Virus record (IMG/VR): IMGVR_UViG_3300037245_003639
Source of the DNA: a virus
Strand: one strand, 5' to 3'
DNA length: 64,000 nt
Part shown: piece by piece, positions 7,476 to 63,559 of the stretch
Layout: every line of letters starts with the position of its first letter
How positions within the stretch are numbered: the first letter of the stretch is position 1
The notes under the pieces: generated by a model
Database searches by the model: none
Told to the model about the DNA's origin: nothing
What the model saw: only the letters and a program-made list of their open reading frames with translations
Made by a program: the position numbers and the translations under genes

Positions 7476-7478
7476 AAC

Positions 7479-8791: not shown

Positions 8792-8797
8792 AACGGC

Positions 8798-8826
8798 AAT
8801 ATAGCCGTTTACCGAAAGATTGTCAA
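8798..8826 (-). promoter_or_regulatory. sigma70-type promoter (TTGACA-17-TATATT)
   Basis: ccTTGACAatctttcggtaaacggcTATATT. Confidence 0.6.
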
Positions 8827-8865
8827 GGATTTTAGAGGGAGTGTTTCAGGCAGCGAGAACGGCAT

Positions 8866-9147: not shown

Positions 9148-9160
9148 CGTTCGTCTCGGA

Positions 9161-9446: not shown

Positions 9447-9452
9447 CTCAAT

Positions 9453-9481
9453 TTTATATCGGATAGCAGCCAGATTGTCAA
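9453..9481 (-). promoter_or_regulatory. sigma70-type promoter (TTGACA-17-TATAAA) driving ncRNA candidate 1
   Basis: cccTTGACAatctggctgctatccgaTATAAA. No ORF lies downstream for about 290 nt. Confidence 0.6.
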
Positions 9482-9647
9482 GGGAAATCTCAGACGACGG
9501 GAGCGGAGGGGTGGTCTATCATTGACGAGGCATCCCACGTTCATCGGGCCTTGCGAGCCCTCCAGTGGGCGGTATACGTCCTCTTCCACCTATTACTTTG
9601 CACTCCGCTCTTTCAGCAGCGTCCTGCCTAGTCGCCCGACCATGGTT

Positions 9648-19507: not shown

Positions 19508-20034
19508 GCTGCCGCCCTCGGTTGTGCTAAAGTAAGGTTGTGTTCCCAAAAATAACGAGTCGGACTGTCGTCATCGAACTCGATTTCGTATGCTTGACAG
19601 CCAGGAGCAGGGAGACCAAACTCATTGTTGCGAGCTATCACTGTCCCTAGTTGGTCGTTCTTTGGACCGTAGGGGTACATAATTCCACTTCGCCCATTCA
19701 CGAAGACCCTATCTCCCACGTCGAACTTTCTGGCTGCCTCAGCCCGTTGCTTGGCAAGATCGAAGCCCTCTCGAATCAGGGCTTTCGGCGGGCCATAATC
19801 AGGATGTTTATTAGTTAGCCTGCAATGGCTGAATGAGACACAATTGTAATGACCACATTTCTTACAGAAGTAGCCAGAACCACAGCCGAGCATGTTGATT
19901 GTGGTATGACATTTGCCACAGCATTCACCGCTCCAACCATTGAAGCCCGGCCAACAAAGAGCATCGGCCACTTTCTCAATCGTCCAGCCCATAAGTCGGG
20001 CGAATCGGATAGCTGCTACTGCTGCACTTGCCAT
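19504..20034 (-). CDS. Cys-rich hypothetical protein
   Basis: CWPGFNGWSGECCGKCH...CGSGYFCKKCGHYNC. Confidence 0.45.
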   Translation of the reverse strand: MASAAVAAIRFARLMGWTIEKVADALCWPGFNGWSGECCGKCHTTINMLGCGSGYFCKKCGHYNCVSFSHCRLTNKHPDYGPPKALIREGFDLAKQRAEAARKFDVGDRVFVNGRSGIMYPYGPKNDQLGTVIARNNEFGLPAPGCQAYEIEFDDDSPTRYFWEHNLTLAQPRAAA

Positions 20035-20036
20035 GG

Positions 20037-23735: not shown

Positions 23736-25145
23736 TTAATCTTCGGACGTATCATCGTCCGACATTTTCACCAGTCGGGGATGGAAACAAGCGATAATGT
23801 CCACAAGGTCAGTCTGAGCGTCCATGACCTTCAAAATGTCTTTATACGCTCCTGGGACTTCATCCAATCCCGCGGAAATTAGTTTGACATTCCGGTGTCG
23901 TAATTGTTCTCGGACATCAGACCAGCGATACTTTTCCTTAGTTTTTGTTCTGCTCATCGCCCGCCCCGCACCATGCGATGCCGACGATAATGATGCAGCG
24001 TTACCTTTTCCCCGAACAAGAAAACCAGGCGTTGCCATTGAGCCCGGAATGACCCCTAGAACATCCACCCCAGCGGGAGTCGCCCCTTTGCGATGGACAA
24101 TCACAGTCCTGCCATCGTGTTCCTCTCGCCACGCAAAATTATGATGGTTCTCTACCTGTAGCAGAGCATCCCACCCCAATTCACGCAATACATGATAGTG
24201 AATCAGATTATGGTTTGCTGATGCATACTCTCCAGCGAGTTCCATCGCCTTCCAGTAAGCTATGCCATCTTCATCATCCATCGACAACCACGCCAGCCTT
24301 TTATACTGAGGCGGCAGCAAGGGATGTTTCGCTCCTGCAACACGGGTGAAGTGATTGGCCACCTTCGACCCAAGCCCGCGAGAACCGCTATGCGTCAAAA
24401 TGGCTACATACTTACCAGGAGGAACATCTCCAAATTGCTCAGTGAACTCTATTTCACCAACATCGAGGAAGTGATTCCCACTGCCTGATGAACCAAGCTG
24501 ATTCCACGCTCTGTCTTTATCCACAATCCCATCAAGGATAGACCAGTCCCGATCCATTACTTCGTGCTGGCGACGACCTGAACGTTGGAATGCGGCTCCC
24601 AGACCAAAGCGGGTATGCTTCTCGATTGCTTTCGTGATTACAGTTTCTTGCTGCTTGATGGGGTCTCCAGCCGTATCGATGGGGACCACAGATAGCATCA
24701 TGCGACATGCAATGTCTACGCCCACACCATAAGGCATGACAGCATTGTCCATAGCGAGCACGCCACCGATTGGCAAACCATAACCAAGGTGAGCGTCCGC
24801 ACATAAAGCCCCTCTTATCGCAGGCGGAATACTCAGAGCGCGGTTCATCTGATCGATGGTATTTTCATCGATGAAGTCTTTGCCCCAAATGGCTAAGGGC
24901 TTATCTTCGCGGAATGTATACAGTTCTTCTGGGTGGAGAATATTGTACCATAAAGACGCCGCTTCGCCAAAGTGCGCATCGCTTCGTAAAGATGCTGGGT
25001 TGCTAAACAACTCGCGAGCAATCTTCTTGCGAGTTTCAGCACCAACTCCTGCTGTCTTCGCGGATTCCTCGGCTTTCAGCAAAACACCAATCACTGGCCC
25101 TTGCTTGAAGCCAATATTGAGCAATCCTCGTGCCTTGAGTCCCAT
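23736..25145 (-). CDS. rtcB: RtcB-family RNA ligase
   Basis: Diagnostic ENHHNFAW motif, the HNLIHYH stretch, and overall length and composition consistent with 3-phosphate/5-OH RNA ligase. Confidence 0.8.
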   Translation of the reverse strand: MGLKARGLLNIGFKQGPVIGVLLKAEESAKTAGVGAETRKKIARELFSNPASLRSDAHFGEAASLWYNILHPEELYTFREDKPLAIWGKDFIDENTIDQMNRALSIPPAIRGALCADAHLGYGLPIGGVLAMDNAVMPYGVGVDIACRMMLSVVPIDTAGDPIKQQETVITKAIEKHTRFGLGAAFQRSGRRQHEVMDRDWSILDGIVDKDRAWNQLGSSGSGNHFLDVGEIEFTEQFGDVPPGKYVAILTHSGSRGLGSKVANHFTRVAGAKHPLLPPQYKRLAWLSMDDEDGIAYWKAMELAGEYASANHNLIHYHVLRELGWDALLQVENHHNFAWREEHDGRTVIVHRKGATPAGVDVLGVIPGSMATPGFLVRGKGNAASLSSASHGAGRAMSRTKTKEKYRWSDVREQLRHRNVKLISAGLDEVPGAYKDILKVMDAQTDLVDIIACFHPRLVKMSDDDTSED

Positions 25146-30312: not shown

Positions 30313-31257
30313 TTATCCAAAAAAGTCATCGGCGTGGATGAATTGGAATCCGCATCGAGAGGCGAAGGTGCGATCTGTCGTCTGATCCCCCACCATTATT
30401 GAGTCACTCGGGGACAGGTTATGTTTCATAATGAACTGGACGCCCAATCCGCTCATTGGTTTGCGACAGTAGCAGTTGATGGGAGCAGGGTTATGAGGAC
30501 AGTAGGCATACTCAATGTCTACCTGGAGCTTCCTATTCGTAATATCAAAGCAAGCTCTAGCTTGCTCATCAGTTGGGCTCCCCTTGGCCACTCCGCTCTG
30601 GTTGCTGACGCCGAGTAAGGCGTAGCCCTCTTTTTCATACTTACGCAGGACAGCCGCCCGCCCTGGAAGAACCACAACTTGCTTCGGGTCTGTAGGCCAC
30701 TTCAACTCTGCCCCATTAGTATCTTCGCTTACCCGGAGAGTGCCATCGTAGTCCAAGATGATAGCGGCGTTCGTCCACTTTGCGGGAAAGCCCCGCATAA
30801 ACGGTCGCCTGTCAACTCGATGGAAGCCCTCAGCTACAGTGGGCGCCTGGAACTGCTTGCGGTAATTGAACAACACAGCAGTGGGAAACATATTTGGGCT
30901 GGAATGCTTTTTGATTTCCTCAGGCATCAACAGTCTGCCTTCACGCTCGATCATCCGCACGCAAGCGTTGAATTGAGCGTCTTCGATGGTGGCTGTGAGC
31001 CAGTCACAAATGACTGTAACATCGAATTTTTTGGCAGCCTCAAGGAAGGGTTTGCGGCTCTCGACTGTAGGGAAGGTGTTGTCGAGAACAACGTCTTTGC
31101 CCGCTTTGAGAGCGGCCACCATCTTGGGAACCAAATCAGCTACTTTGCCCCCGGCCTTATCTCGATTGAGATAGACAAAACCCTGCTCTGTATAGGCCGA
31201 GGCGATTGAGGACTTACCCGCAGCGGGATAGCCCATTACCATAACGACTCGTGGCAT
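30313..31257 (-). CDS. pnkp: T4-type polynucleotide 5-kinase / 3-phosphatase
   Basis: N-terminal P-loop GYPAAGKSS (kinase) and C-terminal ILDYDGTL (the DxDGT HAD-phosphatase motif), in the same order as T4 Pnk. Confidence 0.7.
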   Translation of the reverse strand: MPRVVMVMGYPAAGKSSIASAYTEQGFVYLNRDKAGGKVADLVPKMVAALKAGKDVVLDNTFPTVESRKPFLEAAKKFDVTVICDWLTATIEDAQFNACVRMIEREGRLLMPEEIKKHSSPNMFPTAVLFNYRKQFQAPTVAEGFHRVDRRPFMRGFPAKWTNAAIILDYDGTLRVSEDTNGAELKWPTDPKQVVVLPGRAAVLRKYEKEGYALLGVSNQSGVAKGSPTDEQARACFDITNRKLQVDIEYAYCPHNPAPINCYCRKPMSGLGVQFIMKHNLSPSDSIMVGDQTTDRTFASRCGFQFIHADDFFG

Positions 31258-31264
31258 CAGATTC

Positions 31265-31489
31265 TCACGTTGCAAAGTAGATGACGACAGTAACGACAGT
31301 AATCAAAGCAGCTAGTCGAACGTAGATGCGGGCTTCCATGCCATTCACGCCATTCACGCCATTCACGACTTCCGCTCGCAGTTTCTCGTAACAATCCGGA
31401 CTAATGTCGCCGTTGGCAAGAGCTTCGGCAAAATGCACCGTGTGGCCCGGTGACTGTATCGTCTCCGCAATCAGCTTCTGGCTGTCCAT
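31265..31489 (-). CDS. hypothetical protein
   Basis: 74 aa with a C-terminal TM segment. Confidence 0.35.
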   Translation of the reverse strand: MDSQKLIAETIQSPGHTVHFAEALANGDISPDCYEKLRAEVVNGVNGVNGMEARIYVRLAALITVVTVVIYFAT

Positions 31490-34841: not shown

Positions 34842-35477
34842 CTAATATCTTTCCGAAGTGATATCGCGATATTTAAGCTTGAATTGGCAACGCGACTTCT
34901 TCGAGCTATTTAGGTCAAGTTGCAACTTACCGCGTTTCTTCTTTAGCACAATGCCTTCGGTGAGATGCATTCCCATGCCACCTGCGATCCAGTCGTCCTT
35001 GAGTTCATTGAAGTGGCCAAAGAAATCATTCTCGCGGGTCTCGGCCAAACAGACATCCTGCCCGTTGGCAAGGTCTTGACAACGAGCCCAACGCTCGACG
35101 TATGGTTCATTGGGCAACCATGCGTCATCCCACGCCAAACAGTCGAAGATGTAAACCCGAGGTTCATGGCCTCCCCGTGGACCCACGAACTCAGCATCAA
35201 TGACTGTCTCATCAGGAATGGGCAGCCGCAGCAACTGTTGGATGATGACTTCGGGCATCTTCGATCTGGCACTGATAAAGCGCCCCACCCGAGACAGTAG
35301 CGACATACCGGCTGGAGTTTGACCATCAGGCAACAGGATCATACCTGCCGATTTGTAGATTTCCAAACGCCAGCCATCATATTTGTGCTGACTGAGCCAT
35401 TCATGGGGGCGCAGGGTAGGCAATAACTCTGGTGTGCATTCCTTGGGCTTATCTGGATGACGAAAGCGCTTGAGCAT
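34842..35477 (-). CDS. minimal ATP-dependent polynucleotide ligase (DNA-ligase-like nucleotidyltransferase)
   Basis: Motif I KYDGWR (KxDGxR), motif III VIDAEFV, motif IV EGIVLKKK and motif V FKLKYR. Confidence 0.6.
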   Translation of the reverse strand: MLKRFRHPDKPKECTPELLPTLRPHEWLSQHKYDGWRLEIYKSAGMILLPDGQTPAGMSLLSRVGRFISARSKMPEVIIQQLLRLPIPDETVIDAEFVGPRGGHEPRVYIFDCLAWDDAWLPNEPYVERWARCQDLANGQDVCLAETRENDFFGHFNELKDDWIAGGMGMHLTEGIVLKKKRGKLQLDLNSSKKSRCQFKLKYRDITSERY

Positions 35478-44994: not shown

Positions 44995-45672
44995 CTACAA
45001 CTTCGCTATATCATCCGCCTCAGCCGTCAACTCCTCGGGCTCTGGCGTGGTTATCGGTGCTGGAATTACATCGCCCTCATCAGGGGCAGCGGCCCCCAAG
45101 TCGGCTGTATCAGAAGGGGCAGAGACATAAGATTCCGCCGTCGTGTCATCAAACTCCCAGAGCGTGATATTCAGCTCCAGCGGCGTATCAGTATGTTCCT
45201 TGACCCACTTGGCAAACTTACTGCTGGTCTCGGTTCTCTTCTTCATTGCCTCGATGATTCCGAGAATCTTGGCTTTATCGCCACCTGCCAAACCACTGCC
45301 CATACCCGCCGGGATATGGACCTGATAGCCCAATCGCAAAGCTCTTAGAAACGTTACTTTCAAACAACGCTCCAAAGCTCTGTAATCAACCAGACAACCA
45401 GTACCGAGGGTTTGAGCGCACATGTTGGCGACAAACTTGCCCGTCTCGACTTCGACAAACTGTGTCTCCCCCATCGGAATGTCGCCCTGTGATTGTTCGT
45501 GCCACGCTTTGTAGGCCGCGACAGGAATGGGTGACATTTTACTCAGTGCCAAAACGAAGCCCCCACCCCAGGCACCCTTGCAGTTGACGATATGGGCAAT
45601 GATGACCCCATTTTTAGGAGTTCGAGAAACCGCCGTGGCATCTCCAGTTTTTATCTCAATCGGCATGGACAT
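44995..45672 (-). CDS. macro domain protein (ADP-ribose binding or hydrolase)
   Basis: VIIAHIVNCKGAWGGGFVLAL parallels the macro-domain (I/V)VNAAN...GGGGV motif. Confidence 0.6.
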   Translation of the reverse strand: MSMPIEIKTGDATAVSRTPKNGVIIAHIVNCKGAWGGGFVLALSKMSPIPVAAYKAWHEQSQGDIPMGETQFVEVETGKFVANMCAQTLGTGCLVDYRALERCLKVTFLRALRLGYQVHIPAGMGSGLAGGDKAKILGIIEAMKKRTETSSKFAKWVKEHTDTPLELNITLWEFDDTTAESYVSAPSDTADLGAAAPDEGDVIPAPITTPEPEELTAEADDIAKL

Positions 45673-45913
45673 ACCTTTCCAGTTCTTTTTTGTGACGACG
45701 ATAACAGGCCGAGCCAATCGGCCAAGCCCCAGCGTCATCTGACTGTTCAGCTTCGGCAGGCGTCAAGAAACGACAGTTGCCATCGCCAACGTAAACCCAT
45801 ACAGCCGCTTTGCCCTCATCTATTCCTTTACCACAAACGGCGCATGAAGTCTGGCTGTCTCCACAACGCCGTTCATTCTCGTGGTATCTCGGATGGCTAA
45901 AGGGCCTCAACAT
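45656..45913 (-). CDS. small Cys-containing protein (leaderless)
   Basis: ATG lies 6 nt after the TAATAT of promoter 45920..45948. Confidence 0.4.
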   Translation of the reverse strand: MLRPFSHPRYHENERRCGDSQTSCAVCGKGIDEGKAAVWVYVGDGNCRFLTPAEAEQSDDAGAWPIGSACYRRHKKELERYVHAD

Positions 45914-47164: not shown

Positions 47165-49861
47165 TTAGATCAACGGTTCTTCAGGCCCAGGCCCAGACAC
47201 TGGCATACCTGGATGAAGCGTCGGCCCAGGCCCTTGCTCTGCTATCGGAATGCCAACATTACGTGGATTACGAACAACCTGGCGCAATTGCTCCCAGAGT
47301 TCCTCGTCATCTTCATCCCAATCACCATCATCCTCTTCCATTTGATTGAAACCAAGCTTTATTCTGTCTTGGAACTCATTGCGATGACGATCAAAGAGTC
47401 TAAAAGTGCGTCCGGTATCAAGTTTTTTGTGACTAATGATGTCCAAAGCAAACAATTTGCGAATTTCTTCCATTTCCGCGAAAGTATAATCTTTTGTGCG
47501 TTCGGTCAGATCGCTTATATCCAAAACGCTCAACATGTCCTGTTGGAACCTCTCTGTAATAAACTGCGTCCGTAGTTTCTCTCCCGGGGCAGAGAATGGC
47601 AGCCACAGGTCAATACGCCCTGGACGCACAAACGCTTCATCCAATTCAACCATTTCGTTGGCAGTAAAAACGAAGACGATTCCTTCGGTCGGATAGATAC
47701 CATCCATGTTCGTCAGGAAGGGCAGAATCTCATAGTTGCCTGTCTTCCGATCTTTGATCATTACATCCAAATCATCAAAGAAGACAATAGCCGAACGATT
47801 GCGGGGCGGCGTGAATAACTGCCGAACTGAACCATGCCGTCTGACATCTTCATATTCTTCAAGCGTTATTACTCGATGGTAGAATCCATGTTCAATGGCC
47901 AGATTTCGCAGCCATTTGCAAGTCATCGTGTTATGATTTATAAAGCCACCCGCAGCGAAGGAGTGAGATTCTGGCACATAGAAGTCTGCGACAAAGTTCT
48001 GCGCAGAAACGTTGCTTTTGACCTGATCCCAGAAAATATCACCGCGAGCAATATTCCGCATTCTCGCAAGAACTTCTTTCCCAATTTTAGTTTCATCTAC
48101 AAGTTGAAGAAGGCGTTCAGACTTTCCATGAGACATTCTCTGAGTTCCGTCCTTGTATCTCTGGAACTCAGCGTGCATTCGACGATTGAAATTGCCACTT
48201 AATTTACATACATCTCTGAGCAAATCTGGATCATAGGGCACAATATCATAATTAGTGTTATACTTTTTCTCCTGGAATCTGATTTGTTTCCGTGCCACGC
48301 GGAATCCGATTTCGTCGAAGAAGCATTTAGCCTCCTTGCCATTTATATCTATAGCCCAAGCACCGTTATAATCATTGGGCTTATGACGCAATGATGAGAT
48401 AATACCAAAGTTGGTGAGCATCAGATGGACTGTTCGAGCTAACTCCTCAGAGTAGGAGTCAAAACCAACTCGACCCGTTGTATCTGCCCACCCGTCAGTA
48501 TCAAACAACCCCTGCAAAAACGCTCTTACACAGTCTTGCGGAGCCTCCAAAATACAACGTGGAACAGATTTTTGACATGCTCCCGCAGAACCAAGACCCA
48601 GGAGTTTGAGGAATCCTTTGATCTGAACGCTTTCAATGGTCACCGAAGTCAACCCATCGCGTCGTTTATCATCCTGCACATGAGGAGTTACCGAGAAGAG
48701 TCTGGAGAATAAAGCCACATATTCTCTCTCTAAGTCCGCCGTGGAGAATGCGATTCTGTTCTTGGTAGTTAAATTACCATCACCAGTAAGTAACCCCAGA
48801 AGATATGCGAGATCATCATCGAGAACAGATGGCAAGGAAACAGGGAGCCTACCAGAAGCCGTATGAGCATACGAGATATCTGTTTTGTACCCGAACAACA
48901 TCATCTTACGAGGAACAGCTACAAAATCGCCCTCTTCAATCTCGTCTAGCCTTTTCCATGTAATATCCTGTCCATCTGTTACAATGACGCGATGATTCCA
49001 CGTTCCTTCAAGTTGATAGCCAAAACGAGTGCTTATCTTTTTAGTGTCTCGCCATCCGCCATTGTAAATTTGGGCAGTTTCTTCTCGATGGCCATCTTTA
49101 TTCCATATAGTTACTGACTTGTCTGTGGCGTCATCAACTGCAAGATCTTCTATAAACTCGCCAATAGGCAGCAACCCGCTATTTGTAAATACAGGAGTAT
49201 CAAGAGAACAGCACTTTCCACATCCGGGTTTTCCGCACAACAAGGCTCCCCGTTTGTAAGGAATGTTGTACTTATCGTATTGGGCCTTCTTCTCTTTACC
49301 ATCCACTAGAAAACCAATAGTGTTTTTGTAAATATCAGTCAACATTCCACGAGGCAGGACAGGTGGTTCCAAGTTAGTAGCAGAGTGCTTCTCAATCTTC
49401 CTGGCGAATTTACGTAGACTAAAAAGGTTCCGTTTCTCCACAAATATGGAGAAACTAAGGGGATGATCGTCGAATTCACCGTTCCAATGCCAAAAACGAA
49501 CGGAATCACGTTCTCTTTGTGGACGGTTACGCTGATCAGGATTGAAGATAACGTATTCCCGCAACCCTACATCATAGCGGTCATACCATGAGCCATCATG
49601 TAATGCTGCCTGGGTTTGAACTATAAGTTTACCTTTTCCCTGGTCCTTTTTAGGCAACATTCCCATGGGCATGTCAATAGCGACAGGAATTCGCCTGATA
49701 TGTTTGACATCACGGGTTTCTTTAGAATTAGTAAGCTTGAGGCTTGCAGAAAATCTGCACATACAAAGGTCATCTTGTGAGAAGTCATATTCATCACAAA
49801 GGGCCTTAACAGCATATGCAAAAACAGCTTCGGGGTACTCAGGTTCAAAAACCATATTCAA
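47165..49861 (-). CDS. AAA+ ATPase (classic-clade type) interrupted by an intein
   Basis: The Walker A motif GKPGCGK|C...HN|T is split. The second region of homology is FTANEMVELDEAFVRPGRIDL. Acidic C-terminus. Confidence 0.7.
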   Translation of the reverse strand: MNMVFEPEYPEAVFAYAVKALCDEYDFSQDDLCMCRFSASLKLTNSKETRDVKHIRRIPVAIDMPMGMLPKKDQGKGKLIVQTQAALHDGSWYDRYDVGLREYVIFNPDQRNRPQRERDSVRFWHWNGEFDDHPLSFSIFVEKRNLFSLRKFARKIEKHSATNLEPPVLPRGMLTDIYKNTIGFLVDGKEKKAQYDKYNIPYKRGALLCGKPGCGKCCSLDTPVFTNSGLLPIGEFIEDLAVDDATDKSVTIWNKDGHREETAQIYNGGWRDTKKISTRFGYQLEGTWNHRVIVTDGQDITWKRLDEIEEGDFVAVPRKMMLFGYKTDISYAHTASGRLPVSLPSVLDDDLAYLLGLLTGDGNLTTKNRIAFSTADLEREYVALFSRLFSVTPHVQDDKRRDGLTSVTIESVQIKGFLKLLGLGSAGACQKSVPRCILEAPQDCVRAFLQGLFDTDGWADTTGRVGFDSYSEELARTVHLMLTNFGIISSLRHKPNDYNGAWAIDINGKEAKCFFDEIGFRVARKQIRFQEKKYNTNYDIVPYDPDLLRDVCKLSGNFNRRMHAEFQRYKDGTQRMSHGKSERLLQLVDETKIGKEVLARMRNIARGDIFWDQVKSNVSAQNFVADFYVPESHSFAAGGFINHNTMTCKWLRNLAIEHGFYHRVITLEEYEDVRRHGSVRQLFTPPRNRSAIVFFDDLDVMIKDRKTGNYEILPFLTNMDGIYPTEGIVFVFTANEMVELDEAFVRPGRIDLWLPFSAPGEKLRTQFITERFQQDMLSVLDISDLTERTKDYTFAEMEEIRKLFALDIISHKKLDTGRTFRLFDRHRNEFQDRIKLGFNQMEEDDGDWDEDDEELWEQLRQVVRNPRNVGIPIAEQGPGPTLHPGMPVSGPGPEEPLI
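47930..49213 (-). mobile_element. intein (about 428 aa) with a LAGLIDADG homing-endonuclease domain, inserted in the P-loop of the AAA+ ATPase
   Basis: It starts at Cys217 (CSLDTPV) and ends FINHN followed by Thr. It carries two LAGLIDADG motifs (LLGLLTGDGNL and LQGLFDTDGWA). Excising it restores GKPGCGKT. Confidence 0.65.
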
Positions 49862-52053: not shown

Positions 52054-52234
52054 CGTTCCTCTCCGTCACCTTTTCCGAGACGCTATGCTATATTAGCAGT
52101 ATGAAATGGGATTGCAAGCGGATTCAGGATAAAGTTCACCGTCCAGTAAATCATCGTCCTTTAACAAAAGCTCTGATAACGTTTCTCGACAAACCTTGCA
52201 GGAATTACATCACTTTCTGAGTTACACACATATC

Positions 52235-55200
52235 ATGGAGTCCCAAATGTCCTTCCGATATCAATTCAATAAAAAAGCCATGTTTGTCCATGGCGAAGGC
52301 GACCAAATTGTTGCTTACCGCGATAAAATATGGCTGCTGAGTCGTAACGACGACGAAGCCAATGTCCCTATTATGGAAGACATCGAGAAAACGCTCGCAT
52401 TTGAGCCATTAGGAGATGTCCATGATTTGCTGGGAGCTATTAGGGACAATCGCCCTGATGTTCTGACAGGTTTTATCGAAGGTGACCAGTTGAATATCAA
52501 CGTCGGTAGCGACTGGCGTTTTGGTCGAGGGTCTCACCTTCTTCAGAAAGTCATGGAGGAACTTGGACTAAGAGAAGTCATCTATACCAACCTTGAAGGA
52601 GAGGAATACGAAACCACTCACGGTTCAGAAATCACTGGCCAAATGCCCAAGTATCTCTATCATGGAACTACATCAGAGAACGCTTTCGGCATACTGCGTT
52701 TCGGACTCGCTCCTGACAGAGCCGATACAAATTACCCCAGTAAAGGCGGTAATCCACCCATTGAACATTATGACAAAGTATTCCTCACGGAAGATATCCA
52801 GAATGCTGAGTATCACGCTTTCAATGCGGTAACTCGCGATATCCAACCTGGAATGCCTGGGCAATATGACGTTAACAACCAAGGCCGAGGATTCCCGGTT
52901 ATCTTCCAGTTTCAAATTCCTGATCCAAATCTCTTAATCGCAGATTTAGATGTTGAACATATGTCGGATACTCCTACCGGGCACTATGATTATGTGCCTG
53001 AAAGGAGAGAGCACGATCCCCAAATTAAAGAATCCCCCGAGCAATTCTCTAAGCAAGTTGGGCTTCTGGGATATAAAGGTCGTATCCCTGCGAACTTCAT
53101 TACTGACATCATGGTCTGGATCGGCGACACAGAAAAAACCTATGGCTTTGATGAGGACAACTGGCAAAGAGTAGAGGCCGAGCAACTTGAACGAGCATTG
53201 GAGTGGGGCGACATTCAAGGCATCTATTACGATCCTGAAGAGGATGAAGACTACTGTGCTGAATGCGGTAGTATGCGTGATGATGAAGGCCGCTGTGAAT
53301 GCGAGGAACCTGAAGTTGAGTCCATAGCAAGACAAGCTATGGTCAAAACCGCTCGCACGAAAAAGATAGTTAATGCACTTGCGGAAACTAAAACCGAAAG
53401 TTATTTGATTCACGATATTGACCGCTACATCTCAGATGATATTGCCATCAATATTACTTTCCAAGAAACAAAGCATCGTTATTCCGTGGGCGTATACAGC
53501 ACTAACTATAAGGTTGGAGTTTCCGGCTATCAAGAATACTGGCATTATGATCGTAGCGACCGAGCGCAGGCCCTAAAGACTTACAACTCTATCGTCGCTG
53601 TGATAGCCGAAATGGTAGAAGAAATCGAGTTCAATGCTATCCCGCACACTTTGGCTAAGCCTTTTTTGGTAAAACGTCTCGATAAAATCGACGTGGAGCA
53701 CAAAGAACGAAGTGGCGTGTATCATTACAATTGGTTCGCCGCAGAGGCTGAAAAAGAAGAAGACTGGCGCTCAACCATTTATGGCAAACGGTATCCTGTT
53801 GCTCCTTACTTAGAGCGGTTAGACCACAACTGGAATGAGCCCGGGCAAAGCAGTGCTATTGAAACTAAAGGCCAAAGCAGGCACAAAACATATCAATTCC
53901 GTTATGCGTCAAGCAAGACAAGTCTGACTAAAGACGGAGGCAAGGGTCTAGGATTCTTACTCGGTTTGTCACCTGGATTATTGGGTGCCTTTCTAATGTG
54001 GGCTGCTCATATTAAGGGGCTACCACAAGAAGAAGTTATTCAGCAGGCCAATGAGAATCCTCAAATGCTCGCTCCTATTGTTCATGAGTTTAAGGAGTAC
54101 GCTGAAGTTCCCCTGTACGAGGAACCACTAGAAGCCATCACAGCCCCTACCGAGACCACTTCTTTTGACGATGCTTTAGCCGTCACATTGCAACATGAAG
54201 GTGGCTACGTCAAAAATGAGGTTGAGGAATCTTACCGAGGTGTTCGACGAATAACCTACGAGAGATATCTGGAGCAGCGGGGTTTACCGACTGACAATAT
54301 AGACATGCATAACATTCCAGAAGAGCATCTTCAGGATATTTATCGCACAATGTATTGGGATGCTTCAGGGGCAAACGAATTATCTCCACTTTTGGCTCAG
54401 CAAGTATTTGATTTTGCAGTCAATTCTGGCTCAGGCCGAGCAACACGTTATCTTCAAGGGATTATTGGAGTTGGTCAGGACGGGATTTTCGGCCCAAAAA
54501 CAAAAGCAGCCACAGAAGCCTATATCACCAAACATGGCGAGGAAGCCTTGGCCCAAGAGTACATTCATCGCCGTCGTGCTTTTATAACAGAGTCTGAGAA
54601 GATTCCTGACAAACTCAAGCCAGGGTTATTGAACCGTATTGATGCTATGGAACAATTGATTTCTCCCGCGAAAGAGATGCCCATCAAACCAAACTCTCCC
54701 GAACGTCGTTCCAGGGATGTTCCTGAACGTTTGATTCGTCCATTCTGGAGCAACCAGATTCATATACTGAATGATGGCAAAGAGGCTCAAGCCAAACCTA
54801 TGGCCTTAGAGCCAGGGGCTTACAAAGACGAGCCCATTCCGCACAGGTGGGTCAGCCATTTAGATGCCGCTCCGACGCCATATGGCATAATCCCTCAAAA
54901 ACAAGATCCGAAAGAAATTGAAGAGATGTATGCAGGCGTTCACGCTACTCCCAATATCAACATCGCCGCAATTTATGCGAACAACAGGGGGACAAAAAAA
55001 GATCCACCCGTTGTGATTGAGTTTGCCACTAAGCAATCTTGGGAACCTGACGTGGATATCGATACTCCAAGCGCTCGCGCTCAAATGGAGAGTATTCACG
55101 AACAAATTCAGGAAATCGATGGCCTTGGAGAACATATTGAGAGGTTCGAAGAGACCAACGAAATCGACTGGGAATATATCGAGGAGGTGTTCGATAAAAT

Positions 55201-55909
55201 CGAATCTAACGACGAATATCCCGATGTCTATGAGACCGATTATTCCAATTTTGATGTAAGTGACTACTTGCAAGAGAATGCTCAACGCGCTACACTCTCG
55301 GACTTGGCTGAGTTTTTCAGGACATTCTACGCGGAAGAAGATGACAGACAAGGCGTCTTTGATTTCCAACCTCCCCGGCACCTATTGGGTTTCTACGAAT
55401 GGTATCTAGCACCACTTTTCACAGGTCATGGAACCCTCGATGCGCGAATCGACGCTTGGTTTCTGAACCAGATGCGGTTTATGGACCCAATAAATGAGGA
55501 CGAAATCCTTGCTATTTACGAAGTTACCCGCTATAATCCAGAGGTATATGACTCCTGGAATCCCGAGACCGGCGAGGATGACGCTCGGGAGGAAGACGAT
55601 GAGGGTCGTCAGCTTGTCTCTCTGGAAGAAACGAATTATTGGGAACCGTCATTATCAAAGATTTGGGAATCGCCAACTGCCGATGCCAACCGCCAAAAAC
55701 AAACCTCTTACTACCATGGAACATCACTCAACCGAGCCCAAAAGGCCCTCAGTGGCATTCTTGATGTCCGCTCTGCCGCTTCAGAACTTGTGGTCAAACA
55801 TGGCCGGCATTGGGGAAAGATTGCCACGGAATTACGGCGGCGCGGCTTGCCCAAAACAGTGATAGCGAGCGTAAATGAGCAGTTTTTGAGAAATTTACGC
55901 ACCGCCTAA
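52235..55909 (+). CDS. giant multidomain protein with a GH108-type lysozyme and a peptidoglycan-binding domain, flanked by PARP-like (ART) segments
   Basis: The central LAVTLQHEGGYVKN...YRGV is the GH108 EGGY signature. It is followed by a PG_binding_3-like region (FDFAVNSG...GQDGIFGPKTKAA). YLYHGTTSENAFGILRFGL at the N-terminus and YYHGTSLNRAQKALSGIL near the C-terminus resemble the H-G-S/T...GIL catalytic start of the PARP at 59513. The start could be 52235 or 52247. Confidence 0.55.
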   Translation: MESQMSFRYQFNKKAMFVHGEGDQIVAYRDKIWLLSRNDDEANVPIMEDIEKTLAFEPLGDVHDLLGAIRDNRPDVLTGFIEGDQLNINVGSDWRFGRGSHLLQKVMEELGLREVIYTNLEGEEYETTHGSEITGQMPKYLYHGTTSENAFGILRFGLAPDRADTNYPSKGGNPPIEHYDKVFLTEDIQNAEYHAFNAVTRDIQPGMPGQYDVNNQGRGFPVIFQFQIPDPNLLIADLDVEHMSDTPTGHYDYVPERREHDPQIKESPEQFSKQVGLLGYKGRIPANFITDIMVWIGDTEKTYGFDEDNWQRVEAEQLERALEWGDIQGIYYDPEEDEDYCAECGSMRDDEGRCECEEPEVESIARQAMVKTARTKKIVNALAETKTESYLIHDIDRYISDDIAINITFQETKHRYSVGVYSTNYKVGVSGYQEYWHYDRSDRAQALKTYNSIVAVIAEMVEEIEFNAIPHTLAKPFLVKRLDKIDVEHKERSGVYHYNWFAAEAEKEEDWRSTIYGKRYPVAPYLERLDHNWNEPGQSSAIETKGQSRHKTYQFRYASSKTSLTKDGGKGLGFLLGLSPGLLGAFLMWAAHIKGLPQEEVIQQANENPQMLAPIVHEFKEYAEVPLYEEPLEAITAPTETTSFDDALAVTLQHEGGYVKNEVEESYRGVRRITYERYLEQRGLPTDNIDMHNIPEEHLQDIYRTMYWDASGANELSPLLAQQVFDFAVNSGSGRATRYLQGIIGVGQDGIFGPKTKAATEAYITKHGEEALAQEYIHRRRAFITESEKIPDKLKPGLLNRIDAMEQLISPAKEMPIKPNSPERRSRDVPERLIRPFWSNQIHILNDGKEAQAKPMALEPGAYKDEPIPHRWVSHLDAAPTPYGIIPQKQDPKEIEEMYAGVHATPNINIAAIYANNRGTKKDPPVVIEFATKQSWEPDVDIDTPSARAQMESIHEQIQEIDGLGEHIERFEETNEIDWEYIEEVFDKIESNDEYPDVYETDYSNFDVSDYLQENAQRATLSDLAEFFRTFYAEEDDRQGVFDFQPPRHLLGFYEWYLAPLFTGHGTLDARIDAWFLNQMRFMDPINEDEILAIYEVTRYNPEVYDSWNPETGEDDAREEDDEGRQLVSLEETNYWEPSLSKIWESPTADANRQKQTSYYHGTSLNRAQKALSGILDVRSAASELVVKHGRHWGKIATELRRRGLPKTVIASVNEQFLRNLRTA

Positions 55910-56135: not shown

Positions 56136-57113
56136 ATGGCGACGGCAATAAGGAAAAGAAAACAGCCCCCGGCTAAGCCCCAAATTCCTTTGCAAGGAAG
56201 AAGGGCCAACCGAATAGCTCTGGACTTTACAAGAGGTCAGGGACCAAATCGCCGCACATTTTACAAGTGCGGCGTACTCGAAGCCGCAAGACGGCATCAG
56301 CTTCCGCTAAGAGTGGTTGATAAGAATGGCGTTGTACACCTCATTCCGCCTGACCGCATGGTTCACCGACCCCAACTCGATGACAAATTCGGTGATGCCC
56401 ATGAATTGTCAGGACAGGGCAAATACATCGACAACGATGCCCTCAGCGGGCGAGGCCAAAACACAACCGTAACCGGCGCTCAATATGTCAACCCGTATCT
56501 GGCCGAAGACCGTTCCTACCATACCATCATTCAGTGCTTCCATCATCTTGCAAAACAGACCATCACCAGATTGTCGGCTCGCTTTGCGCGTGATCGCGTC
56601 AACGGTCAACATCTGCTGTGGCAAGGTAAATCCGCTGTGGACGGAGCAGTAGCTGTCTCACCCTGGATCACCGAGGACGAATTGTGGGAGCTGGCCAACA
56701 ACCTCAATCCGGGTTTGAAGGCTCTACTCCGCAAATCCAAAGCCGCCATCAAGAAGGGCGTCAAGAAGCATCAGACGCCGAGAGGCAAATTCGGCGACAA
56801 CCTAAATGTTCTTCGTCGTGCGCGACGGACATTCCGGACAGCGACAGGTGAAACCGAGTATCGCGGCGGTGAGACACCTTACGGAGTCCCGTTGGAGCAA
56901 TGTGGTTTTGCCATCGACATGTTCTTCCTCACGACAGGCTACGACGAGGGTCTAGAAGTAGGCGAATACCACTTCCGTCTCGCCTATGGTCGAAATACGC
57001 CGTGGATACTGTATTATCGTGACTGGCAAGGCATGGGAACCCAAGACCGCATCGCGTTCCTCAACAACAAAATCCGCACAGACGTAATCCAGCGATACGA
57101 TCAGCAGACTTAG
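56136..57113 (+). CDS. hypothetical protein (325 aa)
   Basis: GGAG RBS, no confident motif. Confidence 0.45.
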   Translation: MATAIRKRKQPPAKPQIPLQGRRANRIALDFTRGQGPNRRTFYKCGVLEAARRHQLPLRVVDKNGVVHLIPPDRMVHRPQLDDKFGDAHELSGQGKYIDNDALSGRGQNTTVTGAQYVNPYLAEDRSYHTIIQCFHHLAKQTITRLSARFARDRVNGQHLLWQGKSAVDGAVAVSPWITEDELWELANNLNPGLKALLRKSKAAIKKGVKKHQTPRGKFGDNLNVLRRARRTFRTATGETEYRGGETPYGVPLEQCGFAIDMFFLTTGYDEGLEVGEYHFRLAYGRNTPWILYYRDWQGMGTQDRIAFLNNKIRTDVIQRYDQQT

Positions 57114-57529
57114 TTGGGCTCGCCCGGTGATACGGCGTGTTCGCCGCCGGGCATGACTGCTACTGTTAGATGTAGTGGGACTAAAGGTTGTGCAGGCAAC
57201 CCAAGAGCCTGACGAATCTGCAATAAACCTTCACATTCTACCGGCAACCAGAGATGCTTGTCATTCGTGACAAGTTGGTGGGCATATCCAAACTGCATCT
57301 CTCTGTTCTGGTACGGTAGAATCTTTCCTTCCTCTACCAGTTCTTGTCTCATAACTGTAATATGCGGCCCCCATGCTGGAGGCATCATGGCCGCATAGCG
57401 ACAAGTGAACTTGCGACATAGGTAACGATGATACCGAGCAAGCTCAGTGCAACATTCCACGAGCATCCACCAGTAACCGGGTCTAGCCCGAGATGGAATC
57501 ACTTTAATGTTTCCGCTTGACAATCTCAT
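57110..57529 (-). CDS. 2H phosphoesterase superfamily protein (LigT/CPDase or Acb1-like fold)
   Basis: Two H-x-T-x motifs (GPHITVM and PLHLTVAV). This is a minus-strand gene inside the plus block and is leaderless behind promoter 57536..57564. Confidence 0.5.
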   Translation of the reverse strand: MRLSSGNIKVIPSRARPGYWWMLVECCTELARYHRYLCRKFTCRYAAMMPPAWGPHITVMRQELVEEGKILPYQNREMQFGYAHQLVTNDKHLWLPVECEGLLQIRQALGLPAQPLVPLHLTVAVMPGGEHAVSPGEPN

Positions 57530-57545
57530 GGCTACAGCGTATTCT
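57517..57545 (+). promoter_or_regulatory. sigma70-type promoter (TTGACA-17-TATTCT)
   Basis: cgcTTGACAatctcatggctacagcgTATTCT. Its -10 overlaps the -10 of the opposing minus promoter. Confidence 0.55.
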
Positions 57546-57564
57546 ACACGAGTAAGATTGTCAA
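57536..57564 (-). promoter_or_regulatory. sigma70-type promoter (TTGACA-17-TACGCT) for the 2H phosphoesterase gene
   Basis: ccaTTGACAatcttactcgtgtagaaTACGCT. Confidence 0.5.
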
Positions 57565-57577
57565 TGGAGACCTTAGC

Positions 57578-58054
57578 ATGGCTGTTGAATTTACACATGG
57601 CGGAAAGACCTACTCGGTGGTCTTTGACACAAAGCAACATCGAACCAGGAATCTCCAGAAAAGAGGGATTCTACAACCCCGCAAAACCCAAGCCAAGCGG
57701 ACTGCGGACCCGCTAACCCGCCGATGTACTCATTGCACCGTTAAGGATGGCGAAAAGCCGATTGCCAACGGGATGGCAGTCTGTAGTCCCACGGACAAGT
57801 TCGATAACAGGACTGGCCAGAAGATGGCATTACGGCGAGCGATTAGTCGGGCTCGACAAGACAGAACCCGTCAACTAATAGTTGACAGGACGCTGCCGAC
57901 TGCCGAAAACATTGTCTCTCTTGACAAGGGACTAACGCCAGTTTTAGATCGAGATTGGGCCGCAGAAGCGTGGCAAGCTCTATTTGATTCGCAAACCATC
58001 AACGCCAGAGCCGCGCGACAACGTGCAAAGAAACAGACCGAGAAACACGCTTGA
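57578..58054 (+). CDS. hypothetical basic protein
   Basis: GGAG RBS, 158 aa. Confidence 0.45.
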   Translation: MAVEFTHGGKTYSVVFDTKQHRTRNLQKRGILQPRKTQAKRTADPLTRRCTHCTVKDGEKPIANGMAVCSPTDKFDNRTGQKMALRRAISRARQDRTRQLIVDRTLPTAENIVSLDKGLTPVLDRDWAAEAWQALFDSQTINARAARQRAKKQTEKHA

Positions 58055-59457: not shown

Positions 59458-59486
59458 TTGACAATCTTCCGAAAACTTGGTAATCT
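59458..59486 (+). promoter_or_regulatory. sigma70-type promoter (TTGACA-17-TAATCT)
   Basis: ggcTTGACAatcttccgaaaacttggTAATCT, then ggagatcctgcATG. Confidence 0.6.
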
Positions 59487-59512
59487 TCCGTAGTGTCAAT
59501 CGGAGATCCTGC

Positions 59513-61114
59513 ATGGCTACCAAACTTGGCAGAAAAGCGTATCCATCTGGCGTCAGCCCAGGCGATTTTGAGTGCTTTGGCCCAGTTGCTACAAAAGATG
59601 GTGAATTCGACGACGCCCGGCTCGCTGACCTGGGATGTTTCAACCAGGAAGGCGTAGATTCCAACAAATATTACCATGGGTCCATATGTAAAGCGAATGG
59701 CAAGTGGTATGTATACTTCCAGTGGGGACGGACGGGAGGCACGGGTGATTTCCAGTTCTTCGAGTGCTATGATGAGCATGATGCTCAGGAACAGTTCACC
59801 AAACAACTACGCTCGAAGAATGATAAACGGGGTGAATGGGTGATGAAAGGGGGACTCGGCAAAGTCCTCCGGGCCAAGCCCAATAAAGACTGCTATTTGG
59901 TTCGCCCGCTGGCTACCCGAGACGATACCAGCCCTGGATTGCCAGGAGCAATTGCTGTTACCACAGGTGACGTGAAGGTTAAGAAGACCGTCAAGAAAAC
60001 ATCGAAGAAGAAAACGAAAACTCCGTCTCGCACTTTCGATGCTGAAACGATCAGTCTCATGCGAGCAATGAATGTTGCTGCCGTCCAGTTTACAAAGAAA
60101 AGCATCCAAGGCGGCACCATTCCCACGCAAGCGTCTATCGAGGAAGCCCGAACGGTTCTTATCGAAGCCCAAAAACGGCTGGTCGTTGTAGGCGACAACG
60201 TAAAATCCCAAATCGCTGATACAGAGCTTCGCCAGTTGACCTATCACCTGTACGGCAGGGTTCCCAAAATCAAGCGGGTAGGAGCCCCCGAGAGCGAGTG
60301 GATTCTAAGCCAGGATAACATCTTTACTTGGACCGCTGACTTGGATGCGTTCGAAAACGCTCTGGCCGTTGCTACAGTCGAAATCGAGGAAACCCAAACT
60401 GACAAAGACCCGCTCGGTGGGATGAAGATCGACATGCGGCACCTGCCTCTCGGTGACAAGCAAGGTGATTTCATCCGTAAATGGATGCCTGACGCTTCGC
60501 TTGACCGCCATTCGTGGGTTGGGGACATGAAGATCAAACATGTTTGGGAAGTCACTCGCCACGATGACCCCAAACGATTTGCTGGAGCTATTGACCGAAT
60601 CACTAAGGGGCGAGTGGACACAAGGCATAAGCCAATCAAACAGCCCCGAAAGCGAATCGACTTGGACACTCAGGAAGCCAAGCGTTACGAGGCTGCCAAT
60701 GTCGGAATGCTTTTCCACGGCACTCGTAGCGTCAACGTCCCGGGCATCCTGCGCACAGGATTGCGTTTACCCAACCAACTTGTTGGCGTCGTCATTACAG
60801 GAGCCATGTTTGGCCCTGGTATTTATTGGGCTGACGACTGGAAGAAGAGTGCGGGATACACGAGCCTCAGTGGTTCATACTGGAGTTCTGGCAGCGGCGG
60901 GGTGCGCGGTCGCAAAGCATTTATGTTCGTGGCCGACGTTGCACTTGGGACTGCCCACGTAGCAAACGGATACCGTGGTTATACGGCGGCGCCAAGGGGC
61001 TGTCACTGTGTTTTCGGGAAAGCGGGTAGTAGCGGAGTTGCAAATAACGAGTGGATCGTCTATACTAACGAGCAAAATCGTCTTCGCTATCTCGTGGAGT
61101 TTGATGCCAAATAG
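59513..61114 (+). CDS. WGR-domain poly(ADP-ribose) polymerase-like protein
   Basis: WGR motif WYVYFQWGRTGGTG. The catalytic core LFHGTRSVNVPGILRTGLRLP...AMFGPGIYWADDWKKSAGY...NEWIVY parallels the PARP1 H-G-S / GKGIYFAD / YNEYIVY triad. Confidence 0.75.
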   Translation: MATKLGRKAYPSGVSPGDFECFGPVATKDGEFDDARLADLGCFNQEGVDSNKYYHGSICKANGKWYVYFQWGRTGGTGDFQFFECYDEHDAQEQFTKQLRSKNDKRGEWVMKGGLGKVLRAKPNKDCYLVRPLATRDDTSPGLPGAIAVTTGDVKVKKTVKKTSKKKTKTPSRTFDAETISLMRAMNVAAVQFTKKSIQGGTIPTQASIEEARTVLIEAQKRLVVVGDNVKSQIADTELRQLTYHLYGRVPKIKRVGAPESEWILSQDNIFTWTADLDAFENALAVATVEIEETQTDKDPLGGMKIDMRHLPLGDKQGDFIRKWMPDASLDRHSWVGDMKIKHVWEVTRHDDPKRFAGAIDRITKGRVDTRHKPIKQPRKRIDLDTQEAKRYEAANVGMLFHGTRSVNVPGILRTGLRLPNQLVGVVITGAMFGPGIYWADDWKKSAGYTSLSGSYWSSGSGGVRGRKAFMFVADVALGTAHVANGYRGYTAAPRGCHCVFGKAGSSGVANNEWIVYTNEQNRLRYLVEFDAK

Positions 61115-62587: not shown

Positions 62588-62947
62588 ATGCGAATGTTCG
62601 CTTACCTTATACTGCTGGGAATCGCTGCTTTGATTTCCTTCCTGGCCTGGATTATTATCTTGGCCAAGAGAGAATATCAGTACAAGCGGCAATTCAGACA
62701 AGCCCTGGACCGTGAACAGTCGAAGCGTGATACCATCTGGAAAGAGGCGAGAGCCATTACGGATATGGTGAACCTGTACATGGGCGTGGTCTGCAAACAC
62801 GGCCCAAATTCGCCAACGGCAAAGGCTTTCCGCTTCGGAACAGATAGTAAGCTGATGAAGAAGCTCCACGGTGACGATGAGGCTATGGAGGCGTTCAATC
62901 AGCAATGTGACATCATTGACGCTACTTACCGACAAGCTGTGAGATGA
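62588..62947 (+). CDS. membrane-anchored hypothetical protein
   Basis: N-terminal TM, 119 aa, GGAGG RBS. Confidence 0.45.
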   Translation: MRMFAYLILLGIAALISFLAWIIILAKREYQYKRQFRQALDREQSKRDTIWKEARAITDMVNLYMGVVCKHGPNSPTAKAFRFGTDSKLMKKLHGDDEAMEAFNQQCDIIDATYRQAVR

Positions 62948-63333
62948 TGACAACGAACCCAAAAATCAAGTTCGTTTGTCCCACCTGTAGGGAAGATCGA
63001 ATTGTTGAACTTCGCTCTCAGGTGGACCTTAAAACCGAAGTGGCGGGGGTCTTTGTAACAAGAGACCCCGCCACCAATGGGACTAAGTGCAGTCTCGAAC
63101 AGGGTAATGAAGGCGGACGTACTGACGGAAAAGTAACTGGCTTCTGTTGTGACGCCTGCGGGTTTATCATCAAAACCCAACGACGACTTCTCGGGACGTG
63201 GCAGCGCAAACATTACAATAAGCCCGAGTTTTCAACCCCGAAACCAATTACCACCCCCAGAGGCTTGTATCTTTGGCTGAAACGCAACAATATGATCGAG
63301 GAGCCAGAAAATGCAATTGCAACTACCGCCTAG
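62944..63333 (+). CDS. zinc-ribbon protein
   Basis: CPTCRED...CCDACG. Confidence 0.45.
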   Translation: MMTTNPKIKFVCPTCREDRIVELRSQVDLKTEVAGVFVTRDPATNGTKCSLEQGNEGGRTDGKVTGFCCDACGFIIKTQRRLLGTWQRKHYNKPEFSTPKPITTPRGLYLWLKRNNMIEEPENAIATTA

Positions 63334-63559
63334 CGCCATCTTCGGGATTATTCTTTTCGCTCTATCATTCGTCCATTTAATTGCAGCCATAATAATGGGT
63401 CAGATAGCTGCCAAAAAGCAAGGGGAGCACGTAGGCGACTATGGCTGGACAATCGGCTGCGTTGTATCCGCTATCGGAGCACTAGTCTACGGGATTTTGT
63501 TTGCCCGGTTCCTGTACAACCTAGGCGAGAGTTTCTTTGGTCATTCATGTACAATCTAG
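63311..63559 (+). CDS. small membrane protein
   Basis: Two TM helices. Confidence 0.4.
   Translation: MQLQLPPSAIFGIILFALSFVHLIAAIIMGQIAAKKQGEHVGDYGWTIGCVVSAIGALVYGILFARFLYNLGESFFGHSCTI

Follow-up and report, generated by a model that had tools for sequence, protein, structure and literature searches.

What kind of protein joins a cell-wall-degrading enzyme to ADP-ribosyltransferase (ART)-like segments in one phage polypeptide, and where would it act? The question is raised by an open reading frame (ORF) at 52196..55909 (+) of a 64,000-nucleotide stretch of viral DNA (IMG/VR record IMGVR_UViG_3300037245_003639, hereafter the window), in whose product an earlier note had seen a GH108 lysozyme, a peptidoglycan-binding module and two PARP-like ART segments, and which it had proposed as an injected effector. 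Computation predicts a muramidase, a membrane-type helix and two ART folds bearing the signature of a nicotinamide adenine dinucleotide (NAD+) pocket in this single phage polypeptide, and the C-terminal of the two ART folds is circularly permuted. We tentatively favour, as a reading that falls only a little short of probable, a multi-enzyme protein of the polyvalent kind, encoded by an uncultivated huge phage, in which two NAD+-binding ART folds are grafted onto an envelope-breaching scaffold and which would travel in the virion and be set free on infection.

The ORF is uninterrupted and encodes 1237 amino acids (aa) if read from TTG 52196. The preferred start is ATG 52247, which has GGAG 5 nt upstream (52238–52241) and agrees with the N-termini of every full-length homologue and with a public gene call (P0001; 1220 aa, 100% identical) on a 403,172-bp contig that carries PHROG-only families and jumbo-phage homologues. 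The ORF itself had been recognised correctly, but the start (52235) and the length (1237 aa) previously given for it are incompatible, as 52235 yields 1224 aa and 1237 aa corresponds to TTG 52196.

52247..55909 (+): whole gene, 1220 aa, GGAG upstream, identical to P0001

The C-terminal domain is a circularly permuted ART fold

A profile of the C-terminal domain (residues 864–1237, ORF numbering), searched against 1.84 billion representatives, retrieved 72 cluster representatives, mostly stand-alone proteins of about 300–340 aa without a signal peptide, which start with GVHxT..AAxYAN, DPPVVIE and DxDA and end with YHGT[ST]LSRAKxA; one relative is fused to NUDIX and one to topoisomerase IB. In the AlphaFold2 (AF2) model of the domain (38 sequences; predicted local distance difference test score (pLDDT) 88.9, predicted template modelling score (pTM) 0.84), strand GVHAT, helix AAIYAN and strand PPVVIEF are followed by a helical insert of 130 residues, by strands NQMRF and ILAIYEV and by more strands, the chain finishing with strand YYHGTS and a helix. 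Across the 38 sequences, whose mean column identity is 19%, H/G/T, Y64, DxD and Q229 are invariant and R231 is nearly so.

54785..55750 (+): C-terminal circularly permuted ART-fold domain (profile, AF2 model, permutation test)
54935–54985: GVHAT...AAIYANN, the H-x10-Y element
55004–55063: PPVVIEF...DVD
55067–55465: helical insert, 130 aa
55466–55483: NQMRFM
from 55709: YYHGTS strand with H1174 (ORF numbering) and helix, which come last

The HGT sequence near the C-terminus had been taken for a catalytic start. Only about 60 residues remain after YYHGTS, which therefore cannot begin an ART domain; it forms instead the last strand and helix of a domain that starts about 310 residues upstream. 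In a de-permuted profile (A6), the HGT strand and helix were placed in front and the helical insert was taken out. Searched against PDB sequences, A6 matched Exotoxin A-family ARTs only (14/14 matches, best E 0.0095), and its alignment spanned the artificial junction, pairing H311, H53 and Y64 with H440, Y470 and Y481 of Exotoxin A. Neither a control made of the same three pieces and linkers in native order (A8) nor the full native-order profile (A5) gave an ART match against PDB sequences, and hhalign of the N- against the C-terminal domain returned two local matches, in permuted order. Taken together, these results show that the C-terminal domain is a circularly permuted ART; with circular permutation allowed, it has the fold of the ART superfamily, and its pocket signature (His and His-x10-Tyr) is intact.

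The family has no Pfam model, and no relative was found by tblastn against 50,697 GenBank phages or, at E ≤ 0.001, by Foldseek against the BFVD viral predicted structures. A scan of IMG/VR for relatives gave no confirmed locus, and a full-text literature search found no earlier account of a circularly permuted ART.

The N-terminal domain is a two-lobed ART fold closest to Tpt1/KptA

The N-terminal domain has the split beta-sheet core of the ART superfamily, with the NAD-binding His on strand 1 and a helix after that strand. In front of this core lies a second lobe, modelled by AF2 with pLDDT mostly above 90, which is possibly the substrate-binding lobe.

52271..52627 (+): N-lobe, beta3-alpha2-beta2-alpha-beta2, with conserved RPD and GSxLL motifs (AF2 model, conservation)
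52628..53176 (+): N-terminal ART-fold lobe, with strand 1 LYHGT, F-x10-H, DxD and GYKGRIP elements
52655–52708: strand 1 LYHGT with H156 (ORF numbering)
52778–52828: VFLTEDIQNAEYHAFNA, the F-x10-H element
52895–52957: PVIFQFQ...DLD with the invariant DxD
53069–53101: GYKGRIP element
53255..53302 (+): Cys4 knuckle C-x2-C-x10-C-x-C, conserved in homologues, low pLDDT in the model

The domain is nearest to Tpt1/KptA, the PDB Tpt1 matches spanning strand 1 and helix 1 only. It was not assigned to that family: Pfam PTS_2-RNA (PF01885) gave no match in the window protein and 12.8–21.5 bits in its relatives (cut-off 26), and the Arg-His-Arg-Arg tetrad of Tpt1/KptA could not be identified in the alignments. 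ART-PolyVal/Tox-ART-HYD2 (PF18760) also gave no match in the window protein. The Cys4 knuckle that follows the domain is a putative small zinc-binding linker. Stand-alone homologues of the N-terminal domain occur in cultivable Vibrio schizo-T4 phages, and a homologue is gene phiGrn1_0023 of the cultivable Vibrio phage phi-Grn1.

The two domains fall outside the PARP and Alt families

Both peptides that had been likened to the catalytic start of the PARP encoded at 59513 are present (LYHGTTSENAFGILRFGL at 52655–52708 and YYHGTSLNRAQKALSGIL at 55709–55762), and a six-frame count over every window ORF of 100 aa or more (32,508 aa) places [FY]HGT at three sites only, in the N-terminal domain, the C-terminal domain and the PARP. 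The likeness holds for the first peptide, which shares 12/18 identities with the PARP sequence LFHGTRSVNVPGILRTGL (pairwise E 0.001), and not for the second, which in BLAST against the PARP and against the N-terminal domain was not significant alone (E about 3); the C-terminal HGT is invariant in the 38 family members. The description of the two segments as PARP-like ARTs stands as regards the ART fold of both domains and falls as regards the PARP family, since Pfam PARP (PF00644) scored 15.1 bits with the N-terminal domain (cut-off 26.7) and did not match the C-terminal domain. Of the H-Y-E triad, the His is present in both domains, and the Tyr is replaced by Phe179 in the N-terminal and by His53 in the C-terminal domain; no conserved canonical strand-5 Glu was found in either alignment.

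Membership of the T4 Alt/ModA/ModB group (R-S-E) was likewise rejected, as strand 1 carries His in both domains and no Alt-type PHROG or Pfam match was obtained. The analogy with virion-packaged Alt drawn in the earlier note is accordingly a loose one, Alt being an R-S-E ART and the present domains being of the H type without an evident catalytic Glu. The neighbouring WGR-PARP gene (59477–61114 (+), likely start ATG 59513) appears from its sequence to have a complete H-Y-E signature (LFHGT, GIYWAD, NNEWIVY).

The central region carries a GH108 muramidase

The GH108 lysozyme with its EGGY signature was confirmed, with a PG_binding_3-like peptidoglycan-binding module behind it. Pfam Glyco_hydro_108 (PF05838) matched at E 3.5e-15 (56.7 bits, cut-off 21.2), which places the domain in GH108, and the PDB GH108 proteins 7dnp, 2is5 and 2ikb matched the same region at E 2e-11 (7dnp) to 3e-8; the essential Glu is kept within HEGGY (residues 667–671, ORF numbering). 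The best PHROG is phrog_315 'endolysin' (E 8e-28). PG_binding_3 (PF09374) scored marginally below its cut-off in the window protein, and the homologues P0002 and P0003 pass it (35.9–39.2 bits).

54179..54430 (+): GH108 N-acetylmuramidase domain (Pfam and PDB matches; EGGY at 54197–54208)
54440..54589 (+): PG_binding_3-like peptidoglycan-binding module (Pfam 24.0 bits, cut-off 24.6)

At 54197–54260 (+) the window reads EGGYVKNEVEESYRGVR, where the GH108 canon is EGGYxNxPxDxGGETxxGIT. This EESYRG-type variant is common to the window protein, P0003 and P0006, and the canonical form is found in P0002, P0004, P0005 and P0020.

A conserved scaffold and its partner gene

Between and behind the enzymatic domains lie three elements that recur in homologues, and a further gene follows directly downstream.

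53336..53941 (+): middle domain, about 200 residues, also in P0007, P0020 and an ART-less 693-aa SLT protein of locus L008
53945..54013 (+): Gly/Ala-rich hydrophobic helix GLGFLLGLSPGLLGAFLMWAAHI, transmembrane-like, conserved in homologues
55751..55906 (+): C-terminal three-helix tail, about 52 residues (homologue comparison, AF2 model)
56136..57113 (+): partner gene, 325 aa, with a homologue directly 3' of the scaffold gene in four lineages

The middle domain had no Pfam, PHROG or GenBank-phage match (tblastn, 50,697 GenBank phages). The helix is the sole peak of its kind in the whole protein (Kyte-Doolittle 19-residue mean 1.73), is Lys-rich upstream and acidic downstream, and lies about 60 residues before GH108. 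Its composition resembles that of signal-anchor-release (SAR) domains, yet it is internal (residues 567–589 of 1220, preceded by about 565 residues) and not N-terminal, so that the protein was not classed as a SAR endolysin. The tail is missing from the stand-alone C-terminal-domain proteins and is shared with P0012, which has another wall hydrolase and no C-terminal domain; a similar tail is apparently present in the SLT protein of L008, again with another wall hydrolase.

Homologues of the partner gene are found at L002 (11517–12473), L003 (12595–13761) and L008 (8001–9053). The encoded protein (unk325) carries the motif PLEQCGFAID without variation. Nothing related to it turned up in Pfam, PHROGs or PDB, and a profile of 15 sequences did not change this. 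It may act together with the scaffold protein, for instance as a chaperone, an immunity protein or a co-enzyme. At L008, on a 483-kb phage contig, the 693-aa protein has the middle domain (39% identity), a hydrophobic helix and an SLT lytic transglycosylase; SLT here replaces GH108, no ART is present, and the partner gene still adjoins. Since scaffold and partner are kept in four lineages and occur without ARTs at L008, the conserved unit is the scaffold (middle domain, helix, wall hydrolase, tail) with its partner gene, and the ARTs are swappable accessory modules.

Domain shuffling and gene neighbourhood

The same modules recur in other combinations. In P0020, the middle domain, helix, GH108, C-terminal domain and tail stand behind a different N-terminus, and in P0012 the N-terminal domain, helix and tail surround a different hydrolase-like centre. 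Elsewhere the N-terminal domain is fused to PolyA_pol and HD, to PcfJ and a second PARP-like region, to DSPc and a Tpt1-like region, to an ART-PolyVal-like domain or to an ABC1-like kinase. P0014 is the only relative carrying a separate ART-PolyVal-like domain, which is sub-threshold (29.7 bits, cut-off 31.2).

The N-terminus of most stand-alone C-terminal-domain proteins, and of N-terminal-domain fusion proteins, bears a motif, NW[YLF][KQ]K, which recurs at internal domain junctions (P0008:380; P0011:198, 540; P0014:2, 344; P0015:3, 556; P0063:340, 514). At locus L005, three consecutive ART-like genes (7363–8175, 8172–8996 and 8993–9970), mutually dissimilar in BLAST, all start with (M/L)NWLQK. 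In the window protein the motif is present only in degenerate form, MSFRYQFNKKAM. It could serve these proteins as a common tag for packaging or processing, or be a scar left by gene fusion.

Three lineages of huge phages keep the WGR-PARP gene (78% and 56% identity) at a distance of 3.5–4 kb downstream of the gene for the scaffold protein. The syntenic genes at L002 are a 2H-SAK phosphoesterase, three small ORFs, the WGR-PARP and a membrane protein of about 460–480 aa (phrog_11908), and those at L003 are the partner gene, two of the three small ORFs and the WGR-PARP. The 2H 'Swiss-army-knife' phosphoesterase-like gene (57110–57640 (-); weak Pfam match, E 6e-4; phrog_12204), which is kept at L002, stands in the window between the partner gene and the PARP, and its product could process cyclic-phosphate ADP-ribose or RNA ends. 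Further genes of RNA-repair type are located at 23736–25145 (-), 30313–31275 (-), 34842–35477 (-) and 44995–45738 (-), the set comprising an RtcB ligase (E 6e-88), a polynucleotide kinase (PNK)-like ATPase, a ligase-like ORF and a phosphatase. An ADP-ribosylglycohydrolase gene (19222–20088 (-)) was found about 6 kb from the gene for the PcfJ–N-terminal-domain fusion (P0010) on a 580-kb phage contig (L009), a further sign of ADP-ribose turnover in such genomes.

Two small membrane proteins, which could be holin- or spanin-like, are encoded at 62588–62947 (+) (119 aa, one N-terminal transmembrane helix) and 63311–63559 (+) (82 aa, two transmembrane helices). An AAA ATPase gene (47165–49861 (-)) is split by an intein that bears a LAGLIDADG endonuclease; its L002 orthologue (457 aa) has none, so that the intein is an insertion polymorphism.

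Proposed mechanism and alternatives

In the mechanism that we propose, the protein would be carried in the virion and set free at infection, its muramidase would open the wall locally at entry, the hydrophobic helix would engage the inner membrane, and the ART domains would enter the cytoplasm, where they would draw on host NAD+ early in infection. Phage polyvalent proteins, which are predicted to be injected, typically contain lysozyme and ART domains, and one protein often has several of them (PMC5512222, PMC9503650). Both ART domains carry the pocket signature, a strand-1 His and an aromatic/His-x10-aromatic/His pair spaced as Y470/Y481 of Exotoxin A, and from the invariance of the pocket residues across highly diverged sequences we infer that both bind NAD+. 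As to the chemistry, we favour cleavage of NAD+, or a transfer of ADP-ribose to phosphate or to the ends of nucleic acids, over an Alt-like modification of arginine in proteins, because the strand-5 Glu is absent, the N-terminal domain is nearest to Tpt1/KptA and the C-terminal domain has the His/His pattern of that clade. The fusions and neighbours (NUDIX, 2H, CCA-type nucleotidyltransferase-HD and phosphatase, with RtcB and PNK-like genes elsewhere in the window) point the same way, as they are part of the network of ADP-ribose and RNA-end processing that has been described for phages (PMC9503650). Our confidence is highest in NAD+ binding by both ARTs, lower in a chemistry other than that of Alt and PARP, and lowest in a virion-carried polyvalent effector.

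Several observations weigh against this proposal. On the side of the enzymes, the E-values of the permutation test are individually marginal (best 0.0095), the catalytic Glu/Asp could not be placed in either ART domain, so that enzymatic activity is a prediction, and the canonical DxGGxT stretch after EGGY is lost in the window GH108, which has EESYRG instead. On the side of delivery, MuF, portal and processing-peptidase domains are all missing from the window protein, the two ARTs would end up on opposite sides of the membrane if only one helix crosses it, and a stand-alone N-terminal-domain homologue of Vibrio schizo-T4 phages sits among early-type genes. No virion or packaging gene was recognised in the 64-kb window (PHROG scans; Pfam scan of 34 window ORFs), where the neighbours are an HTH regulator, the AAA ATPase, chaperones, the PARP and RNA-repair genes. 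No virion, late or packaging gene was recognised at L002, L003, L008 or L009 either, a weak test as most neighbours there are unannotatable, and the gene contexts of the stand-alone family members were uninformative on virion genes.

The lack of structural genes nearby would also suit an oversized endolysin with cytoplasmic enzymes, whose ARTs act in the infected cell and whose GH108 reaches the wall late through holin lesions. GH108 coupled to PG_binding_3 is a standard design among endolysins, in keeping with the best PHROG, both ARTs would lie in a compartment that contains NAD+, and the two small membrane proteins, as potential holins, are encoded 6.7–7.4 kb downstream. Endolysins are normally small, however, and the strictly conserved helix, middle domain and tail would be left without a role. 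We therefore regard this explanation as unlikely, the more so as the scaffold stays constant while hydrolase and effector modules swap, a pattern characteristic of polyvalent proteins and of lysins associated with the virion (PMC5512222).

The replacement of the strand-2 Tyr (by Phe in the N-terminal and His in the C-terminal domain), the missing strand-5 Glu and the failure or sub-threshold scores of the Pfam ART models would also fit ART folds that are catalytically dead and serve as binding or structural modules (ADP-ribose or nucleotide readers, assembly domains), with the muramidase as sole enzyme. Tpt1/KptA and Arr-type ARTs are, however, active without a canonical strand-5 Glu. The residues H, H/F-x10-Y/H, DxD, Q and R are moreover invariant or nearly so over very divergent sequences, and the NUDIX fusion and the 2H linkage suggest that ADP-ribose products are made, all of which makes dead modules a distinctly unlikely explanation.

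Least probable is a muralytic protein of signal-anchor or SAR-like type. In the producing cell its helix would insert N-in/C-out, leaving the N-terminal ART and the middle domain in the cytoplasm, while GH108, C-terminal domain and tail would be exported and serve lysis, or a local remodelling of the wall, in the periplasm. The Gly/Ala/Ser-rich helix is like SAR domains, lies about 60 residues before the lysozyme domain and has flanks (Lys-rich upstream, acidic downstream) that follow the positive-inside rule. SAR domains are N-terminal, however, about 565 cytoplasmic residues would block release, and the periplasm would offer no NAD+ to a domain whose relatives are leaderless and in one case fused to NUDIX. 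That the C-terminal-domain family is leaderless and has a NUDIX fusion argues that the region C-terminal to the helix is not destined for the periplasm, and delivery by the virion is preferred over such a topology in the producing cell because this leaderless, cytoplasmic-type domain lies C-terminal to helix and lysozyme.

Novelty and significance

Large phage proteins that combine lysozyme with one or more ARTs and are predicted to be injected have been known as a general kind since 2017. What is new is a Tpt1-like two-lobed ART family and an undescribed circularly permuted ART family with a large helical insert, a scaffold with a dedicated partner gene in phages of 400–580 kb, and the conserved linkage to a WGR-PARP. 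ARTs are central in the conflict between phage and host, as exemplified by T4 Alt, ModA/B, DarT and NAD+-depleting defences. Since the permuted family is invisible to Pfam, PHROGs and order-dependent searches, NAD+-using phage enzymes are undercounted in current surveys, and the family is a natural example of an ART core that tolerates re-wiring.

The scaffold, with or without ARTs, with varied wall hydrolases and with its partner gene, points to a modular delivery or lysis device specific to 400–580-kb phages. A more far-reaching proposal, which we hold to be possible but doubtful, is that the C-terminal domain stands for the first clade of the ART superfamily to show circular permutation, an active NAD+-using family widespread in uncultivated phages both as stand-alone proteins of about 300 aa and fused to NUDIX or topoisomerase, and that the whole protein is a new entry device of huge phages, in which scaffold and partner ferry exchangeable effectors and NW[YLF][KQ]K serves as packaging or processing tag. 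The N-terminal-domain homologues of Vibrio schizo-T4 phages and the small stand-alone C-terminal-domain proteins are directly tractable entry points.

Comparison with known systems

The concept of T4 Alt, a phage ART delivered with the DNA and acting at once on host targets, is the same as that proposed here. Alt is an R-S-E ART that has an N-terminal capsid-targeting sequence, is not fused to a lysozyme and is proven to be packaged, whereas packaging of the window protein is a prediction. With diphtheria toxin, Exotoxin A and PARP (H-Y-E), the neighbouring WGR-PARP included, both ART domains share the strand-1 HGT and the x10 clamp spacing; the first clamp Tyr is Phe in the N-terminal and His in the C-terminal domain, the second is His in the N-terminal domain, and the C-terminal domain differs by its permuted chain order and the 130-residue helical insert. 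The N-terminal domain differs from the RNA 2'-phosphotransferase Tpt1/KptA in the order of strands and helices in its N-lobe and by 20 extra residues that separate strand 1/helix 1 from strand 2.

GH108 endolysins of the N4 gp61 family share EGGY with the window protein and, unlike it, are small and single-function. The virion hydrolases and ejection proteins T7 gp16, phiKZ gp181 and cyanophage A4 gp28 likewise hold a wall hydrolase inside a large multi-domain protein with membrane-interacting segments, and neither these nor N4 gp61 show a sequence relationship beyond the hydrolase domain.

A close parallel is provided by the polyvalent proteins of phages and conjugative elements, whose most frequent modules include ART and lysozyme domains, often in multiple copies (Iyer, Burroughs, Anand, de Souza & Aravind 2017, PMC5512222). 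The window protein differs from them in that its ARTs are distinct from the described ART-PolyVal/Tox-ART-HYD2 (H-Y-D), one family being undescribed and permuted, in that it has no MuF, portal, MPTase or N4-RNAP anchor and no linkage to late or virion genes in the window, and in that its scaffold (middle domain, helix, hydrolase, tail and partner gene) was not found among the architectures of that study. It agrees with them in its extensive shuffling (PcfJ, kinase, phosphatase, nucleotidyltransferase, topoisomerase and NUDIX) and in uniting unrelated activities, here a muramidase and two ART folds, in one large single polypeptide, which places it among the polyvalent proteins.

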